Shown: positions 30,177 to 63,942, numbered from the stretch's first letter. The stretch: 64,000 bases of DNA from an uncultured Acidobacteriota bacterium (GCA_963809485.1 CAWEJX010000008.1:320001-384000), one strand, 5' to 3'. Notes: generated from the letters alone by a model not told the origin. Numbers and translations: made by a program.

Positions 30177-31745
30177 ATGGCAAAATCCACAAGGCTCATG
30201 TGCCTGGTGGCACTCGTACTACTGTCTCCCGGTCTGGCCGGTTTGGCTTTTTCAGGATCTCCGGCGGTCAAAGCCGAAGATTACCCGTCGCTGTCGGCAA
30301 AGGAATTGGGCCACGTTCAATTCCTGGTCCAGGTTGCCCAACAGCCGCCCGGAGACTGGTCCTTTATGGGGGGCCGGGAGGAAGGACAGGAAGGGATGGA
30401 AGCCTACCGATACCAGCTCGGATATATGGCCTATGCGCTGGCGCTCGCCCAGTATCACAAAACGCCCGCCTACCGGGAGTTGTATCAGAAAGCGCTGGAC
30501 AATCTCATTCAGAAGATGATTCGCAAAGATGTCTGGTACTACTGGCAGAATACGAGCAAGGGTTTTACAACGGCAGATCCGCCGCAAAGGGGGCGAGGGT
30601 TGGGCTGGCTCGATCCGGTCGTAGAGAAAAACATCATGTATAGCGGCCACCTGATCAACATGGTGGAGCTCTATCACATGCTCTATCGCGATGACAGGTA
30701 CGACAAACCCAAATCCATCACCTTCCGCTGGAATTTGTTCGAGAAAGTCAAAGACATTTTTGAGTACGACGGCAACAAGCTTGCAGAGCGAATGAATCGG
30801 CAGTTCCTGGAAAATCCCCTTCATATGATTGAATGCGAGATTGGCCTGGTTTTTCCGGTTTGCAACCAGCACCCGCTTCTCGGGCTGATCCTTTATGATC
30901 ACAATCACGGAACCAGCCTGGCTGGGCCCGTCAAAGACCTCATGATGAAGACCTTTACGGAAAAGGGTCTGCTGGATCCGGCCACCCAGTATTGGCAGCA
31001 GTTCTATATGATCGATCAGGGTAAAGTGGTTGGGCCGCCTTCGCCCGTAAACAACGCATTCGTCGGAATGCCTATGCATGTGTGGAAGACGGAGCTGATC
31101 GAAAAACTCTATCCGGTTCATGCAAAGCAGGTCCAGTTTGAGAGTGACGGCACCGCCAAGGTGGAGGGTGATGCCGGTTTCGGAACAACTTCCGTGCCCG
31201 GATTTGCAGGTTATGCGAGGGAAATGGGCGATGAGAAAACGGCCGGGAGCCTGATTGCCTGGATGGAGAAAAACTGCGCGCCCCAGTGGATGGGCAGCAA
31301 ATATTTCTATCCGCGCAATGATGAGAAAAAAATCTCCACGATATTCAAAGTCCATGCAGCGGTTGCCGAACTCAATGTCAAAAATGGGATCTGGTCGATG
31401 TATAACCGGCCATGGAATGGCGGGTATTTCAATCAGCCCTTCATTTCCGGCGTCGAGCATCCCAAGGCGATTGTCAGGCAAGCCTATTATGACAGCGCCA
31501 AGGACGTTCTCGCGATAACACTCCTGCCGGGAGAACCGAGCGGAACCCATACCTCCTTTGCCGTCAATCAGCTGAATAAGGCAAAAGTTTATTCGATAAA
31601 GCAAAACGGCAAGCTTGTGGGCCGTCTCAAGAAAGGCACTGTCGAATCGGGTGCGAAAGGGATCGAGTGCACAAAGGAAGGGATCCTCAAAATTTCAACC
31701 GGCCTCGATAAGGCACAGACATTTCTGATTCAGGCAGAAATCTGA
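30177..31745 (+). CDS. Exported linalool dehydratase/isomerase (LinD/Ldi)-like protein
   Basis: Signal peptide; RYQLGYMAY, KDVWYYW, DPVVEKNIMYSGHL and CEIGLVFPVCNQ, matching the LinD NIMYxGHL and CE-x7-CN catalytic segments. Confidence 0.75.
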   Translation: MAKSTRLMCLVALVLLSPGLAGLAFSGSPAVKAEDYPSLSAKELGHVQFLVQVAQQPPGDWSFMGGREEGQEGMEAYRYQLGYMAYALALAQYHKTPAYRELYQKALDNLIQKMIRKDVWYYWQNTSKGFTTADPPQRGRGLGWLDPVVEKNIMYSGHLINMVELYHMLYRDDRYDKPKSITFRWNLFEKVKDIFEYDGNKLAERMNRQFLENPLHMIECEIGLVFPVCNQHPLLGLILYDHNHGTSLAGPVKDLMMKTFTEKGLLDPATQYWQQFYMIDQGKVVGPPSPVNNAFVGMPMHVWKTELIEKLYPVHAKQVQFESDGTAKVEGDAGFGTTSVPGFAGYAREMGDEKTAGSLIAWMEKNCAPQWMGSKYFYPRNDEKKISTIFKVHAAVAELNVKNGIWSMYNRPWNGGYFNQPFISGVEHPKAIVRQAYYDSAKDVLAITLLPGEPSGTHTSFAVNQLNKAKVYSIKQNGKLVGRLKKGTVESGAKGIECTKEGILKISTGLDKAQTFLIQAEI

Positions 31746-39414: not shown

Positions 39415-39700
39415 AATATGCTTCCTATGGAATGCACGATATGAGCGCTGGAAATCCCATTAAGCCGTTGATTTCGACACTGATTGCAATTTTATCCCAT
39501 ATTGGGACAATATATCCTGGAATTTTTACAGGTCTGAACTTATCAGCCGGATTTTGGACTCAACGGAGGAAAGTCATAATTCCATGCATGCTGAACTGGG
39601 AAATTAGTTAGCCTGATCCTGGATTTGGACACTATGGGGCTGTTTAAGACATAATTCTCTAATGGGGACTTCAAAACTAATTATCATGGAGGAATCGCGC

Positions 39701-41419
39701 ATGAAATTGCGTATCGCGGTCCTTGCAGTTTTGTGCATAGGCCTTGTTTGCAGTGTTTCAATGCAGAGCAATCAGACCTATGCGCAAGGGAAGAAATCAG
39801 CCTCGGCCAATGGACCGGTGGTCATGCCGAAAATAACGGTGCTCAATCCGATGGGAACGCCGCCGCCGATCACGTTGATCCCTCAGGCGCCGCGCCCGAA
39901 CACGCTGGACGGCAAGACTCTCTACTTTATTAATACCGGCTATATAGGGACCGATCGTCTTATGGCAGTAATGTCCGATTGGTTTAAGGCCAACTATCCC
40001 AAAACCAACATCGTATATAAAGACTATAAAAGCGGGGCCGGATTGGCCGAGCTGAGCAAAGAATTGTGGGCTGAGGTTGCTGAAAAAGGAGACGCCGCAA
40101 TCGTCGGGCTGGGCCATTGAAGTCTCTGTGCGCCAGCGGCGGTTCGCCTCTCTTTTGATATCGAATCCAAAATGAAAAAGCCCGCAGTGCCCCTCATCCT
40201 GACCGATTTTGAAAAACAGGAAAAAGAGGTGGCTTATAACCTCGGAATGCCCAATCTGCGGATCCAATTTTTCCGCGGCCCGGTCTGGGGTAAAACGAAC
40301 GAGCAACTCAAGAAGCAGATTGTGGAAGGAAACAATCCGATTACGGGGAAACCGGTGATGCCGGAGCTGGTGGAAAAACTGACCAAACCCCTGACGGCTG
40401 AAGAACAAAAAACCGGAGAAGTGAAGCAGAATCTGGGACCGAAGACTTATACAGGAACGCCCGACGAACTCCAGAAGTTATTTCTCGAAAAAAGATACAC
40501 GGACTTCCTGCCCGTGGTATTGCCCACCGAAGATAAAGTCGCCGAAATGCTGAAGTTCACCAGCCACGAACCCACCAAGGTGCTCGGCAAAATGAATCCC
40601 GGGTCCGAGGCCGGCGAAAGCTGGACCTATACGGTAAAGGATGCAGCCGTGAGCGCAGTCATGGCGGGCGCCAAACCGGAATATTTCCCGGTCATTCTGG
40701 CATTGGGCTCAACCGGCATGACGGCCGTCAACGTTTCCGATAACGGCTTCATGGCGGGTGCCGTAATCAATGGCAAGATCCGCGACGAAATCGGGCTTAA
40801 TTACGAAGAGGGCGCCGTAGGCCCCTATGCCCACGCCAATACGACCATTGGCAGAGCCTGGAGCCTGCTGTCCATCAATGGCGGAAACTGCGGCAAAGTC
40901 GGAACAACCTATATGGGCACGATCGGAAATCCAATGAACCTGATCGGGATCATCATGGCCGAAAATGAAGGGAAATCTCCCTTCAAGCCGCTGTCTGTGA
41001 GGCGCGGATTTAAAGAAGGTGAAAACATCGTCACTCTATTCATGGGATGGGGCATTCTTTCCGCCAAGAACTGGGCCGCAACTATTTGGGGGCCCAACAT
41101 GAACTATCCCGAGATTATCAAGGAGATCTACAGTACGCAGGACGGACACTTGTTTGGAACTTGCGCCGTTCTGAGTCCGCCGATCGCCAATTTCGTCAAG
41201 GACGCCGGATACGATACCGTGGAAAAGTTTACGGAATGGGTAACGGGCCAGCCGATTGGAGCCAAGCCCGCCGCTCCCCGCGGAGCGGAGATCAACATGG
41301 GCGTTCGCAAAGCCGGAGGGATGTTCACCGTCATCGTCACCGGCGGATCCAACAACAACTACTTCAGCATGGGCGGCATGGTGCCGGCCCAGTCAGTCCA
41401 GATTGATAAGTGGCGGTAG
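39701..41419 (+). CDS. Exported UGSC-family selenoprotein (572 aa, Sec140, motif USLC)
   Basis: ORFs 39662-40120 and 40172-41419 are in frame across TGA 40118-40120, giving AAIVGLGH-U-SLCAPAAVRLSFDIESKMKKPAV; signal peptide; TDFLPVVLPT, AVMAGAKPEYFPV, ANTTIGRA, AENE; GGAGG RBS. Confidence 0.88.
40121..40151 (+). promoter_or_regulatory. SECIS-like hairpin
   Basis: AG-c-GGCG[GTT]CGCC-t-CT; G-starting loop at +22 from the UGA. Confidence 0.6.
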
Positions 41420-42456: not shown

Positions 42457-43601
42457 CTACGCCAGAAGGTCTTGCGCCCTGATCAGTCTGTTTCGGACCT
42501 CGACCCCATTGGGGCACCGAATAGCGCAGGCGGAGCAATCGCTGCAACGAACGGCGCGGATTTCATCCGGCAGACGCATAAAATTATTGCGTGCCTGCCT
42601 GAAGTCGCCGGCGAAATCGTTATAGGCCAGGTACCGCAATTCATCGGTGACCGGTATCCCCTTCGGGCATTTGCCTTTGCACTCATAGCACATGCGGCAG
42701 TAGAGCGGACGGATCTCCTCGTTTCGCGCAAACAGCATTTTCTCGTCCTGAGGAGTATACGGCTCCGTCATTGCCCGGAAGTTCATCTCAACCTCGCTAT
42801 GTTTTCTGCATAAGGCACGGTGGTCGATATGTCGGGATTCATTAAAACCCACTTGACGGCCGCCAGCGGCCCCTCGTTTGTCAGCACCCTCTTCCTTTTG
42901 GGGGAGGCCCGAATCCGGCCATGGCCATCGCGACAATCACTTTCATCGCCACGACGCCGATTCCCGCTTCATGCAGCTTGTGCAGGGCCGCATTGCGGTC
43001 GGAGCCTATCGGGTAGCTGTAGGTGGTTTGCACGACATCGTGTTTTCCGAGTTTTATGATTTTGTCCACGACAGCATTGATATCGTGCGTGCTGATTCCG
43101 ATGAAACGCGTCTTGCCCTGCTTTTTCAGCATTTCCTGGGCTTCGACCGCCTCGTCGGTTATCGAATCCGGCGTGTCTCTGGCGTGCAGATGCCAGATGT
43201 CGACATGATCCGTCCGCAGCGCCTTGAGACTCTCGTCCATTTCCTTGAAGACTTCCGCTTTGGTCATTCCATCGGTTTTGCTGGCCAGAATGATTTTGTT
43301 TCTCCTGGCACTTGAGAGCGGCCCCGGTGATTTCTTCGCTTTTGCCCTTTTCGTACGTGCGGGCAGTGTCGAAGTAGTTGACACCCAAATCTGCGGCACG
43401 AACGAGGACCGCGGGATCGGGAATAAGGCCGACGCCGCAGCCGACACCGGATACTTTCAGGCCGGTCTTGCCGAGTACCCGGTAGCCCACTACGCCTGTG
43501 GACTGGCCAAAGGATTCCGGAGAATGAGAAGCGACAAGTCCCGCAACGGGCAAAGCAAGTCCGGTTTGGAGGAATTTCCTGCGCGATGAATCGAACTCCA
43601 T
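42457..43601 (-). pseudogene. Tat-signal aldo/keto reductase with C-terminal Fe-S motifs; three frameshifts
   Basis: SRRKFLQ; YRVLGKTGLKVS, GVNYFDTARTY, ESLKALRTDHVD, GKTRFIGISTH, GVVAMK, CRMCYECKGKCP, CSDCSACAIRCP; shifts near 43310, 42893 and 42796. Confidence 0.78.
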
Positions 43602-43822: not shown

Positions 43823-44178
43823 ATGAAAAGGGCTCGGATCCTGCAAAATGATTCTATTGCCGGGAACAAGCATCCGTAAGGGGCCATGCGGCCATGGTCG
43901 GGATATCCGGTTGAGACAGCTGCACATCGGCCGTGAGCCGAAATTGCAGAACGCTGGAACAGAACTTTCAGATTCCCACTGTCGGAGGCGCGGCATCCAA
44001 TATCATCCAATATGCCCAGGGACACGATTTCCAGTACACCAACGGCTCGCCCATTCGATATATATCCTTTCCCTTCCCAGTGGCCGGGCAACCTCAATCA
44101 GTCCACCATCTCAAAGGCATCTATCTGAGCCTCGTCTGCCACATAAATCGGCCTGCCTCGGTGATAATTTCGTTTTGA
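43823..44178 (+). pseudogene. Decayed UGSC-family selenoprotein remnant (motif UDSC)
   Basis: In-frame GHAAMVGISG-TGA(43912-43914)-DSCTSAVSRNCRTLEQNFQIPTV...PIRYISFPFP, parallel to GDAAIVGLGH-U-SLC...IESKMKKPAV...NLRIQFF of 39701; the frame is closed upstream and truncated downstream. Confidence 0.7.
43915..43949 (+). promoter_or_regulatory. SECIS-like hairpin
   Basis: CTGCA-ca-TCGGC[CGTGA]GCCGA-aat-TGCAG: two stems, loop at +18 with G in second position. Confidence 0.6.
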
Positions 44179-60438: not shown

Positions 60439-61770
60439 CTAGAAGTTTTTGTCGTAAGCCAGGTCCCTTTTCAGTGTTCTGGCAGCCAGCAGAAAATGTA
60501 TGGCCGCCCATAGGGTTGCGACAATGACAACCATCAGAATCGCATATCTCAGCGAATCATTGCCATACCGCGGCTGCATGGAATCACTTAATGCGCCGAC
60601 GACCAGCGGCCCCACGCCCATGGAAATCAGGTTTACAAAAAAGGCATAGATCGCGGACGCCACGGCACGCCGGGCCGATCCCGCAATACCGAGCAGCATG
60701 GACATCGTCGGGCCAAGATACATGTGTCCGAGAAGAGTCGGGAGGATCAGGAAAAGCAGGGCCGGTATGGGAGCGGGCCAGAGATATACCAGGAAAACGA
60801 CAGGGACAGCGACCAGGATTCCGGCGCTGGAAATCCACATATACCAGCGTGGATCCTGAGTTTTCCGGAACATGCGATCGCCCATTGCACCTCCGAGGAA
60901 TGCGCCGCAGGCTCCGGAGATCCCGAAGACGAAGGCAAGCCAGGTTCCCGTTTCGCCGCTTGTCATTCCGTGCGAGCGCATGAAAAATGAAGGCTGCCAT
61001 ATTCCCGCTCCCCAGCCGGAAAGGCCATAGAGAGCCGCGGCGAAAATTAGATGAAGGGAGGCAGGCCTCTCCCACAAGTAGCGCAATGTAGTCAACACAG
61101 GGGGTGCCGGAGCTTGCGGCTGCAAAGTATCGTGGAATCCGCGCGGCGGTTCACGCACAGTGAGCCTGAGAAGTATCGCGACCGCGATACCCGGCAATCC
61201 AACGACCATGAAAGCCGCGCGCCAGCCGAAAAACTGATTGACCCAGCCGCCAACCAGGAATCCCGTTAGTACCCCCAGCGGCACCCCCATACCCTGCACG
61301 GCCAACGCCGTGCCTCGCCTTTCCGCAGGGTAATAATCCGCTAAAATCGAATTCGACGCCGGCGAGCTTCCGGCTTCACCGATCCCGACACCGACGCGTG
61401 CCAGAAAAAGCGATATGAATCCGGTAGCCAGGCCGCACACAGCCGTCATACCGCTCCACAGGCAGAGAGTCACGGCAATTATATTTCTTCTATTAACTCT
61501 ATCCGCAAGAGAAGCGATAGGAATTCCCACAATAGAATAGAATACCGCAAAGGCCAATCCTCCCAGCATTCCGAGCTGAGTGTCCGTAAAGCCGAACTCC
61601 AGTTTGATCGCCTCCAGCAATACGGCCATTATCTGTCGGTCCACGAAGTTGAGAACTGAAATAATCAGCAGCAGTACTACAACATACCTGCGCTCCATTT
61701 CTGTGATTCTGAAGGCGGGCAGGTTCCCTGCTCTGAGAGTTTCCCTTGCGGCTGCAGCATCCACAATCAT
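60439..61770 (-). CDS. MFS transporter (spinster-like)
   Basis: NFVDRQI, GIPIASLADRVNR, ARVGVGIGEAG, DYYPAERRG, GWRAAF; AGGAGG RBS. Confidence 0.9.
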   Translation of the reverse strand: MIVDAAAARETLRAGNLPAFRITEMERRYVVVLLLIISVLNFVDRQIMAVLLEAIKLEFGFTDTQLGMLGGLAFAVFYSIVGIPIASLADRVNRRNIIAVTLCLWSGMTAVCGLATGFISLFLARVGVGIGEAGSSPASNSILADYYPAERRGTALAVQGMGVPLGVLTGFLVGGWVNQFFGWRAAFMVVGLPGIAVAILLRLTVREPPRGFHDTLQPQAPAPPVLTTLRYLWERPASLHLIFAAALYGLSGWGAGIWQPSFFMRSHGMTSGETGTWLAFVFGISGACGAFLGGAMGDRMFRKTQDPRWYMWISSAGILVAVPVVFLVYLWPAPIPALLFLILPTLLGHMYLGPTMSMLLGIAGSARRAVASAIYAFFVNLISMGVGPLVVGALSDSMQPRYGNDSLRYAILMVVIVATLWAAIHFLLAARTLKRDLAYDKNF

Positions 61771-62286: not shown

Positions 62287-63942
62287 TTATCGCCCGGCCT
62301 TGGTCATGGTCGCGCCCGTGATCTTTTTTGTGACATGGGCAACCGTCTCGTAGCTCCACAACAGGGAATAGCCCGGCACACCGCCGGCCACGGTAATGGA
62401 AAAATTCTTTTCCGGTATGCCGGTCTTTTGAGCAAACCAAGCCTGTACATCCTTGCTGGTTTTATAACCCATTTTTGCTAAACCTTGAGCACATTCCGGG
62501 TGAAACCATACCAGATAGCCCCCTCTGCCTTTGCCGATCGATTTAATCATACCGTCCAAAATCCCCTGCTCCGTCCAGATAGCGACCGCTCCACCTCCAA
62601 ACATATTGGCCCCAGATCCACCATAAGAGCCGACCTTGGTCACCGTCACTGTACTGTCTCCCTTGGCAAAACCCTGGCTTACCTGATAGGGGTCCCAGGG
62701 GCTCATCTCTTCATTTTCGGCAAAGGTGTAAAAGGTATGCGGCGACGTCCGCCCGGTCAGGGCCATGTCGTTCTCCGCCGGCCACGTGTGACCAATATTG
62801 CGCGTCGCTAATCGAACGGACCGTCCAATGGTATTATTGGCGCGCCAGCAATCGCCCAGGTAACCAATCCCCGAATTCATGTTGATTTCCTTAGCTATTG
62901 GACCGTTCACCTGAATGGCAAGAGTAAAGGCACCCGCCGATCCCATCATGTGCCAGAATCCCATCCCGGTGTACCCTGGCGCCACAAATGCCTCCATCGC
63001 CGCGATTACCACTGGAAAGTACTCCGGCTTTGCTCCCGCCATCACCGCGTTGATCGCAATCTTTTCAATAGTGGCCGTGCCGGATTTCATGGGGATTTTG
63101 CCTATCACTTCGCTCGGGGAACGACTCGTCCCTTTGAGCATCCGGGCAACGGCTTCCCTGGTCGGGGGCACCAGAGGCAATCCATCGCCCATCTTGTTTT
63201 CGAGAAACGACGCGTTGAACTTTTCCACCGCGTCCTCATAACTATCGCCCGTAATGCGAACGGGCGGGTATTCGACTGCGGATCTTGTCTGAGGCTTCGC
63301 CTCCTCTGCTGTCAGAGGCTTCGTCAGTGCATCCACAATGGGATTAAAAGCGGCTTCAACGAGGGGTCTTAACTCTTGTACCGTTCCCCGAAGCCTGTAC
63401 CATTTTTCGGAAGGAAATGTTACCATCCGCATGTTGGGCATCAACCAATCAGCAGCGGCTGATTTTGCGTCCTTCAGGAAATTCGAGCTGACCAGAAGTA
63501 CTCCAGGCGCTCCATACTTTTCCATCTGCATTGTGCGGCGGGAACCCCACCACGTGCAGGTCCCTCAGTCTCCCATCGCATATACAAATGCATCGCATCC
63601 CTTCGCGATCGACTGAAAATGCTCTTCCTGTGCCTGTGCCTGTATTCCCGGGTTAAATCCTCGCTGAATAGTTACGCCCGGATACTTCTGCTTCAGCATT
63701 TCTTCCAGTATGTCAAATAGCTGCGGCACACCCGGTTTGATGTTATGCACCAGAGCAATCTTCTTACCAGAGTAATCCGAAAGACGAGGCCTCAGTGCTA
63801 AAAATGGCTCAGGCTCAATCACGCCCATGGGATTGAGCAGCTCCAAAGTAACCTTTTCGTTCGCCGGCCCGGCCTTCGACCACCCGCCAAAAAATAAACC
63901 GGCGGTCAGCAGCAAAAAAGCCGCTAAGATTTTATTTCTCAT
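62287..63942 (-). CDS. Exported UGSC-family selenoprotein (551 aa, Sec126, motif UGTC)
   Basis: ORFs 63565-63942 and 62287-63531 are in frame across TGA 63567-63565, giving YAMGD-U-GTCTWWGSRRTMQMEKYGAPGV; signal peptide; GDGLPLVPPT, ATIEKIAINAVMAGAKPEY, ANNTIGR, FAENE. Confidence 0.9.
63535..63564 (-). promoter_or_regulatory. SECIS-like hairpin
   Basis: GTGGTGGG[GTT]CCCGCCGC, an 8-pair stem with two G-U pairs, starting 12 nt after the UGA; loop at +20. Confidence 0.7.

Follow-up and report, generated by a model that had tools for sequence, protein, structure and literature searches.

Within a 64,000-nucleotide stretch of DNA from an uncultured Acidobacteriota bacterium (GCA_963809485.1 CAWEJX010000008.1:320001-384000; the whole stretch is called the window here), positions 39701-41419 of the plus strand hold a candidate gene for an exported selenoprotein of the UGSC family, which an earlier note had proposed to be hidden by an in-frame TGA. 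Translation table 11 gives a plus-strand open reading frame (ORF) at 39662-40120, which encodes 152 amino acids (aa) and ends ...GLGH, and a second plus-strand ORF at 40172-41419, of 415 aa, in the same frame. Between the TGA at 40118-40120 and the ATG at 40172 lie 51 nucleotides (nt), that is 17 sense codons, and translation confirmed the note's claim that the two ORFs join in frame through them. With TGA read as selenocysteine (Sec, or U), 39701-41419 forms a coding sequence of 572 codons plus TAG, whose sole recoded codon, U140, stands in the context GLGH-U-SLC-APAAV; the cysteine that the note had placed three codons past the TGA is there, as C143, encoded by TGT at 40127-40129.

The start at 39701 is favoured over that at 39662 on sequence grounds, because a Shine-Dalgarno-like GGAGGA (39688-39693, plus strand, read directly) lies 7 nt upstream of it, and because the residues M-K/R-L-R and the hydrophobic core that follow it are kept in orthologues while the upstream sequence diverges. 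A promoter-like site, TGGACA-18-CATAAT (39626-39655, plus strand; 10/12 matches), is a weak lead only; the region holds three such sites against 2.1 +/- 1.5 in shuffles, which is not above chance, and a terminator scan likewise gave nothing above chance. From the sequence and its relatives we consider it highly probable that 39662-40120 and 40172-41419 belong to one gene, with Sec encoded by the TGA at 40118-40120.

Selenocysteine at the in-frame UGA

The Pfam UGSC domain (PF24696) matches residues 47-206 (39839-40318, plus strand) at 62.3 bits, against a cut-off of 25, and the match runs across the TGA. The host genome (6.04 Mb in 21 contigs; completeness 95.7%, contamination 7.3%) carries the Sec machinery, with selB (391 bits), selA (565), selD (346) and tRNA-Sec (70.6) all above their family cut-offs, and ARAGORN also reports a tRNA-SeC with anticodon tca. 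The selD gene (G000:C8:80982-81905) itself has one in-frame TGA, and so appears to encode a selenoprotein too.

Relatives were searched in 40 genomes, 24 of the same genus and 16 from other families of the class, a strong match being one at E <= 1e-60. Strong matches were found in 24/24 of the genus genomes and in 0/16 of those from the other families; in the genus, a TGA lies inside every listed match that spans residue 140, and none of the seven stop-less rows starts before residue 144. From other species of the genus we took a set of 20 orthologous loci (75-93% identity), in 19 of which the site could be located by pattern. All 19 have TGA followed by S-L-C, which disposes of the possibility raised in the earlier note that the codon is really TGC or TGT. 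Among public sequencing runs none contained half of the stretch's words (best 0.28). Contigs that bridge the TGA were obtained from three RNA libraries and a single DNA run; they belong to relatives of about 85-95% identity, and no difference at 40118-40120 is among the differences listed for them, which, since RNA libraries can hold DNA, counts only as absence of contrary evidence.

Variation among the 19 orthologues is concentrated at third codon positions. Over a 105-nt alignment the variable columns at codon positions 1, 2 and 3 are 8/35, 4/35 and 30/35, and for the 17 codons that separate the TGA from ATG 40172 the figures are 4/17, 4/17 and 14/17. This third-position bias on both sides of the TGA indicates that the reading frame continues through it. 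In one orthologue the codon corresponding to ATG 40172 is ATA, and thus this ATG is not a conserved start.

These observations bear on the simplest alternative, namely that the TGA is a true stop and the locus encodes two products, an exported stub of 139 residues and, beginning at ATG 40172, a protein of 415. Table 11 yields exactly these two ORFs, public gene callers return the C-terminal piece of 413-415 residues (118/120 best matches cover <= 75% of the query), and the hairpin downstream of the TGA (described below) is not, by itself, thermodynamically special. A stop at this position would, however, cut the UGSC domain mid-way, and it sits badly with the third-position variation that continues in frame for 17 codons; the proposed second start, replaced by ATA in one orthologue, has no GGAGG-like site before it; and 19/19 orthologues keep the TGA, 40 paralogues have one at the matching column, and distant relatives are unsplit proteins in which Cys takes the Sec position. 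We regard a true stop as very improbable.

The Sec column was also followed into 32 distant full-length representatives. It holds Cys in 15 of them, 14 of which read C-x-x-C, and Ser, Ala, Met, Gly, Thr or His in the remaining 17; homologues with Sec or Cys at this column, on which the earlier note had made its reading depend, are therefore present both as 40 Sec paralogues in the genome and as these 15 Cys forms. Two closer full-length database relatives at 57-59% identity (P0063 and P0084) have Ser and Leu at the column and keep the +3 Cys; both are residues with codons one base from TGA.

A second alternative is that the gene is a pseudogene decaying through a nonsense mutation. A genuine remnant of a third family member does lie nearby, at 43864-44109 (plus strand): its 82 residues, which retain a TGA (43912-43914) and D-S-C, are 88% identical to residues 111-192 of another copy in the genome (G000:C4:390890-392167), and it has no N-terminal part and no C-terminal domain. 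The gene at 39701-41419, by contrast, has a single in-frame stop in 572 codons, its substitutions, before and after the TGA alike, are mainly at third positions, and 19 orthologues from other species are 75-93% identical to it over their full length with exactly one TGA apiece. Decay is, in our judgement, even less probable than a true stop.

The hairpin that the earlier note had seen after the TGA is present at 40135-40151 (plus strand), 17-33 nt after the U of the UGA, with a GUU loop and a stem of A-U, G-C, a C/U mismatch, G-C, G-C, C-G and (G-C). In most orthologues a G replaces the mismatched C, which gives a stem of seven pairs. Position, loop and stem are all retained across the 19 orthologues, where 94.7% of cells in the stem are paired, against 54-79% when the 3' strand of the stem is shifted by 1-3 columns. 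The stem covers five third-codon positions, of which three are invariant, one varies once and one switches between A and G (both of which pair with U), whereas 27/28 third positions outside the stem are variable; by a Fisher test done by hand (invariant third positions 3/5 in the stem, 1/28 outside), p is about 0.007. Of the genome's 41 family TGAs, most are followed by a similar hairpin, which begins about 13-16 nt on and has a 3-5 nt loop with GU. The hairpin is thus a plausible bacterial selenocysteine insertion sequence (SECIS), backed by its position and conservation and not by its energy.

The paralogue family and the domains of the protein

By searching the genome's stop-to-stop frames of >= 250 codons, with TGA read through, with a profile of four full-length members, we found 64 family frames. 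TGA occupies the Sec column in 41/64, and 37 of these 41 read U-x-x-C; the exceptions are three tandem SW-U-GAAT copies and one low-scoring frame with two adjacent TGAs. The tandem copies (G000:C4:340996-348037) have no Cys three residues after the Sec and, if real, would have Sec working without its usual partner. Cys stands at the Sec column in 0/64 frames; those without TGA have Ser, Ala, Leu, Gly, Thr, Val, Met, Asn or a gap there, and they lack the +3 Cys too. Frames of at least 150 bits comprise 40 with Sec and 11 with another residue. The 40 Sec frames fall into 39 clusters at 95% identity, with a median identity to the nearest paralogue of 70%; the sole near-identical pair (98%) is the second copy in the window and one on contig 12, a pair that may stem from a co-assembled strain. 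In a closed genome of the genus, a single contig of 6.9 Mb, there are >= 23 matches at E <= 1e-60 among at most 33 scored candidates, and therefore the expansion is not an assembly artefact.

The second copy, which the earlier note had cited as a paralogue with TGA at the homologous position, lies at 62287-63942 on the minus strand and has 551 codons; its U126 (TGA at 63565-63567), in the context MGD-U-GTC, does align to the same column as U140. PF24696 covers its residues 35-178 at 86.8 bits, and its UGA too is followed by a hairpin (63526-63559, minus strand), with an 8-bp inner stem, a GUU loop and a 5-bp outer stem.

The two residues between Sec and Cys are not fixed in the family, where UGTC, USTC, UDGC, UGSC and other variants occur. 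The earlier note had singled out the USLC motif and the signal peptide as the unusual parts of the protein; the motif is present and the signal peptide is predicted, but neither is unusual, given the many U-x-x-C variants and a signal-like N-terminus in 41/51 paralogues. More notable are the number of copies and the large, unnamed C-terminal domain.

Across the phylum, 13/151 sampled genomes carry the family (nine candidates per genome being scored), and outside this lineage its usual form is a short UGSC gene, with one or two TGAs, adjoining a separate gene for the C-terminal domain.

The protein is related to the 147-residue short form described by NCBIfam NF041046 without being, by its score, an equivalog of it: this gene scores 35.8 bits and the paralogue at 62287-63942 scores 71.8, both below the curated cut-off of 125. 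An AlphaFold model of the whole protein, from an 81-row alignment, is confident (pLDDT 91.0, pTM 0.89). The UGSC domain is modelled as five parallel beta-alpha units in a flavodoxin-like arrangement, with U140 between a strand (132-138) and a helix (143-157). The closest structures to it, at Z 8-10, are flavodoxin-like domains of the B12-binding and receiver types (7te2_A, for instance, at Z 9.9 with an rmsd of 2.4 over 114 residues); none of the 50 structural matches listed is a thioredoxin by title, and Foldseek with the whole model gave no match at E <= 0.001. The flavodoxin-like arrangement is common and gives no function.

The C-terminal domain (residues 236-572; 40406-41416, plus strand) comprises about 340 residues and belongs to no Pfam family; folded alone, it is modelled with pLDDT 89.7 and pTM 0.91. 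Two candidate folds were rejected. Class I fumarate hydratase was the best Foldseek match (E 7.9e-4, probability 0.66), at a TM of only 0.26 and an rmsd of 16.8, and a phage capsid protein was the best in VIA-align, at only Z 5.7 over 76 residues, no chain reaching Z >= 8. Searches of solved structures by sequence gave no match at E up to 1 for the single protein, and two chance-level rows only (E 0.9 and 1.4) for the family profile. When 80 family members were scanned one by one against Pfam at E up to 1, no family besides UGSC recurred, and the ESM Atlas returned the family's own clusters only. The polar residues R65, E155, D268, T276, T287, N380, R385 and E421 are retained in essentially all 51 paralogues, Sec-containing or not; D268, N380 and, nearly, E421 are kept in 40/40 Sec and 11/11 non-Sec copies. 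There is no conserved cysteine in the C-terminal domain across the paralogues.

Probable export and a possible periplasmic redox function

Residues 1-28 (39701-39784, plus strand) form a predicted Sec-type (general secretory) signal peptide: MKLR, a hydrophobic core of 15 residues, and T-Y-A followed by Q. The n-region, h-region and T-Y-A motif are retained among orthologues, and AlphaFold draws the N-terminus as one helix (residues 2-32, pLDDT 62-77) that leads into a linker. A crude hydrophobicity rule assigns a hydrophobic N-terminus to 41/51 paralogues. These features make it probable that the protein is exported to the periplasm. A few members (G000:C12:202394-204226, C4:293828-296194 and the database protein P0084) have twin-arginine-like N-termini instead (SRRAFF, PRRAFL and SRREFV), and their sequences suggest that some copies are exported already folded.

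The best overall explanation of these findings, in which we place good confidence, is that 39701-41419 encodes a long-form exported UGSC selenoprotein with a redox role. The earlier note's hidden selenoprotein thus stands, on the PF24696 match across the TGA, the Sec machinery, the TGA in 19/19 orthologues and the homologues with Sec or Cys.

For its mechanism we propose a substrate-specific periplasmic oxidoreductase, a reductase with its own substrate domain, which we regard as possible but a little short of probable. The UGA at 40118 would be decoded by SelB and tRNA-Sec, helped by the hairpin at 40135-40151, and the signal peptide would direct the chain to the periplasm. In the model the third strand ends with Sec140, and the helix after it carries Cys143 on its first turn; from these positions the pair could cycle between selenol/thiol and selenenylsulfide. 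The C-terminal domain would bind a substrate and position it for the Sec/Cys pair, which would reduce (or oxidise) it, reductase being the most likely direction; the about 40 diverged copies would differ in their substrates. Adjacency of the split UGSC and C-domain genes elsewhere in the phylum suggests that the two parts work together. Electrons might reach the periplasm via the genome's DsbD-type membrane electron carrier; a carrier of this type is also found in 10/14 control genomes, so this is weak support.

Several results weigh against a reading of this kind. Eleven non-Sec paralogues and 17/32 of the distant representatives have neither Sec nor Cys and yet keep the C-domain motifs, which implies that this domain can function in the absence of the redox pair; no solved structure, by sequence or structure search, accounts for it; and the signal peptides were judged by eye and by the crude rule above. 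No thioredoxin-reductase-like partner stands beside exported copies among the 180 neighbouring ORFs described below, and the immediate neighbours of the gene are hardly kept in the orthologue loci (within 1.5-kb flanks, the upstream MoaF-like gene in 0/19 and the downstream ORF in 1/19). The hairpin of this gene has the C/U mismatch and a short stem; over 63 nt its fold energy is -10.4 kcal/mol (z = +0.31), 114/200 shuffles being at least as stable, and in the 19 orthologues there are compensatory double changes at 0/7 stem pairs and a covariation score equal to that of shuffles, so the stem could be conserved partly for the protein sequence.

As to its surroundings, the gene stands alone, with the MoaF-like gene divergent upstream and, downstream on the opposite strand, an unnamed ORF together with a seemingly frame-shifted aldo-keto-reductase/ferredoxin gene. 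Because these neighbours are not conserved, the context gives no substrate. More broadly we scanned, in sets of 5, 83 and 92, the 180 ORFs within 2.5 kb of 57 family frames, and found no universal partner gene among them. The recurrent neighbours are subunits of the xanthine-dehydrogenase family (9 ORFs at 5 loci), FAD_binding_2 flavoproteins (5), aldehyde:ferredoxin oxidoreductases (4) and MFS transporters (3), together with many esterases and peptidases. At three places a large molybdopterin subunit, a FAD_binding_5 subunit and a long UGSC gene follow each other on one strand. One of these is the second copy in the window (62287-63942), which lies 129 nt downstream of FAD_binding_5 and molybdopterin-binding large-subunit genes situated past the window's end (G000:C8:384072-387301; L059) and upstream of an MFS transporter (60439-61770); the molybdopterin/FAD_binding_5 order recurs at C12:123464 and C20:505863.

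This arrangement suggests a different role, in which the exported selenoprotein turns over no substrate and instead serves partner enzymes, such as molybdoenzymes of the xanthine-dehydrogenase family, as a sulfur or selenium carrier or an electron acceptor, or else acts as a periplasmic binding or sensing module. Three paralogues, the window's second copy included, directly follow the molybdopterin large-subunit and FAD_binding_5 genes, and 9/175 of the neighbouring ORFs in the two larger sets belong to the xanthine-dehydrogenase family. All C-domain motifs persist in the paralogues without Sec or Cys, as they would in a binding module; this speaks for an independent role of the C-domain and leaves room for carrier or binding functions. 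The model also places the nucleophile at the strand-to-helix turn of a flavodoxin-like domain, a geometry found in sulfur-carrier proteins such as DsrE and rhodaneses as well. Set against this, the gene at 39701-41419 and its three closest paralogues have no molybdoenzyme neighbours, and about 40 diverged copies better suit many substrates than one delivery task. With 34 matches to the large-subunit family in the genome, a rough chance expectation is about two adjacencies, against 6-7 seen, so part of the molybdoenzyme adjacency may be chance. We think a carrier or binding role improbable, and prefer a redox enzyme that acts on a bound substrate.

Other features of the window were recorded in passing. 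The aldo-keto-reductase gene at 42457-43601 (minus strand), with a C-terminal 4Fe-4S part, extends over overlapping frames (42881-43447 and 42969-43601); the split is a frameshift or a sequence error, and an intact relative of 405 residues exists (L073:4795-6009). At 30177-31745 (plus strand) a gene encodes a linalool dehydratase/isomerase-like domain (273 bits). Esterases, S9 peptidases and acyl-CoA carboxylase subunits abound in the wider region, consistent with a catabolic neighbourhood.

Comparison with known selenoprotein systems

That UGSC proteins are a known but functionally uncharacterised selenoprotein family, as the earlier note had said, is borne out by the PF24696 match and by the available text of two reviews (PMC13188914, PMC9312934), where the UGSC-containing protein is listed among selenoproteins of unknown function. 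According to the available text of Zhang and Gladyshev (2008; PMC2398784), UGSC proteins are among the most abundant selenoproteins in ocean and freshwater metagenomes, with 255 Sec and 21 Cys sequences in ocean samples, and a thioredoxin-like fold was guessed for them. In those parts of the reviews that were available, neither 'signal peptide' nor 'periplasm', 'exported' or 'secreted' appears in the 2026 one (PMC13188914); the 2022 one (PMC9312934) lacks 'signal peptide', and its two uses of 'periplasm' concern selenite reduction. A literature search returned no paper for selenoproteins together with Aminicenantes, and none for this family together with selenoproteome and Acidobacteriota.

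The gene is an ordinary new member of this known family, and its USLC motif and predicted signal peptide are normal for its lineage; it is the expansion of the family and the unexplained C-terminal domain that deserve follow-up. The 40 TGA frames at the Sec column (39 distinct at 95%), plus selD, may be set beside the bacterial records given in the available parts of the literature, namely 57 selenoprotein genes, with 63 predicted in one assembled genome (PMC13188914), and earlier records of 39 to 46 (PMC12013277). Standard gene callers split the long form, 118/120 of the closest database entries being the C-terminal piece only, and such genomes therefore under-report selenoproteins.

A more far-reaching proposal, which we consider rather unlikely as a whole, is that the genus has expanded one exported selenoprotein to about 40 diverged Sec copies per genome, none with Cys instead, so that this single family would give it one of the largest bacterial selenoproteomes known, and that these copies would constitute an undescribed class of periplasmic selenium-dependent enzymes. 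Each would join a flavodoxin-like Sec domain to a catalytic domain of new fold and be tuned to its own substrate in the anaerobic breakdown of plant-derived compounds, some of them coupled to molybdenum hydroxylases. UGSC proteins have been among the commonest selenoproteins in environmental DNA since 2008 while their function, as far as the available sources go, is still unknown; a family that is multiplied, always Sec and probably exported could be a practical system in which to ask what they do, and why selenium is kept over sulfur.

Among characterised enzymes, the Stickland reductases PrdB and GrdB (PF07355), which also have U-x-x-C according to the available table 2 of PMC2398784, offer a working analogy only: there Sec-x-x-Cys attacks the substrate once it is bound, and a dithiol system restores the pair to its reduced state, much as we suppose for Sec140 and Cys143. 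No homology to them was found; PF07355 is not among the matches of four family members at E up to 10, and the genome's sole PF07355-like frame, compared with the family profile, gave a probability of 0.2% and no alignment.

With the UGSC family itself (PF24696, NF041046 and, so far as its text was available, PMC2398784) the gene shares the domain, the Sec column followed by x-x-Cys, the hairpin after the UGA and the rarity of Cys forms, the genome having 40 Sec and no Cys paralogues where the ocean samples had 255 and 21. It differs in its motif, U-S-L-C and not U-G-S-C, in its predicted signal peptide and in the fused 340-residue domain, and its UGSC domain is modelled as flavodoxin-like, in contrast to the thioredoxin-like guess in that paper's available text. 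Comparable is the UGSC/Unknown_1 fusion from ocean metagenomes (PMC2398784, from its available text and the legend of Figure S1A), in which the UGSC domain is likewise joined to a conserved domain of unknown function, which might be the present C-domain; those portions of the source mention neither export nor large gene families. A further likeness is the split two-gene form of other Acidobacteriota (for example in genomes G106, G118, G164, G055 and G087), where a short UGSC gene lies beside a gene for the same C-domain. Unlike that form, the lineage described here has the two parts fused, a putative signal peptide added and the copies multiplied.

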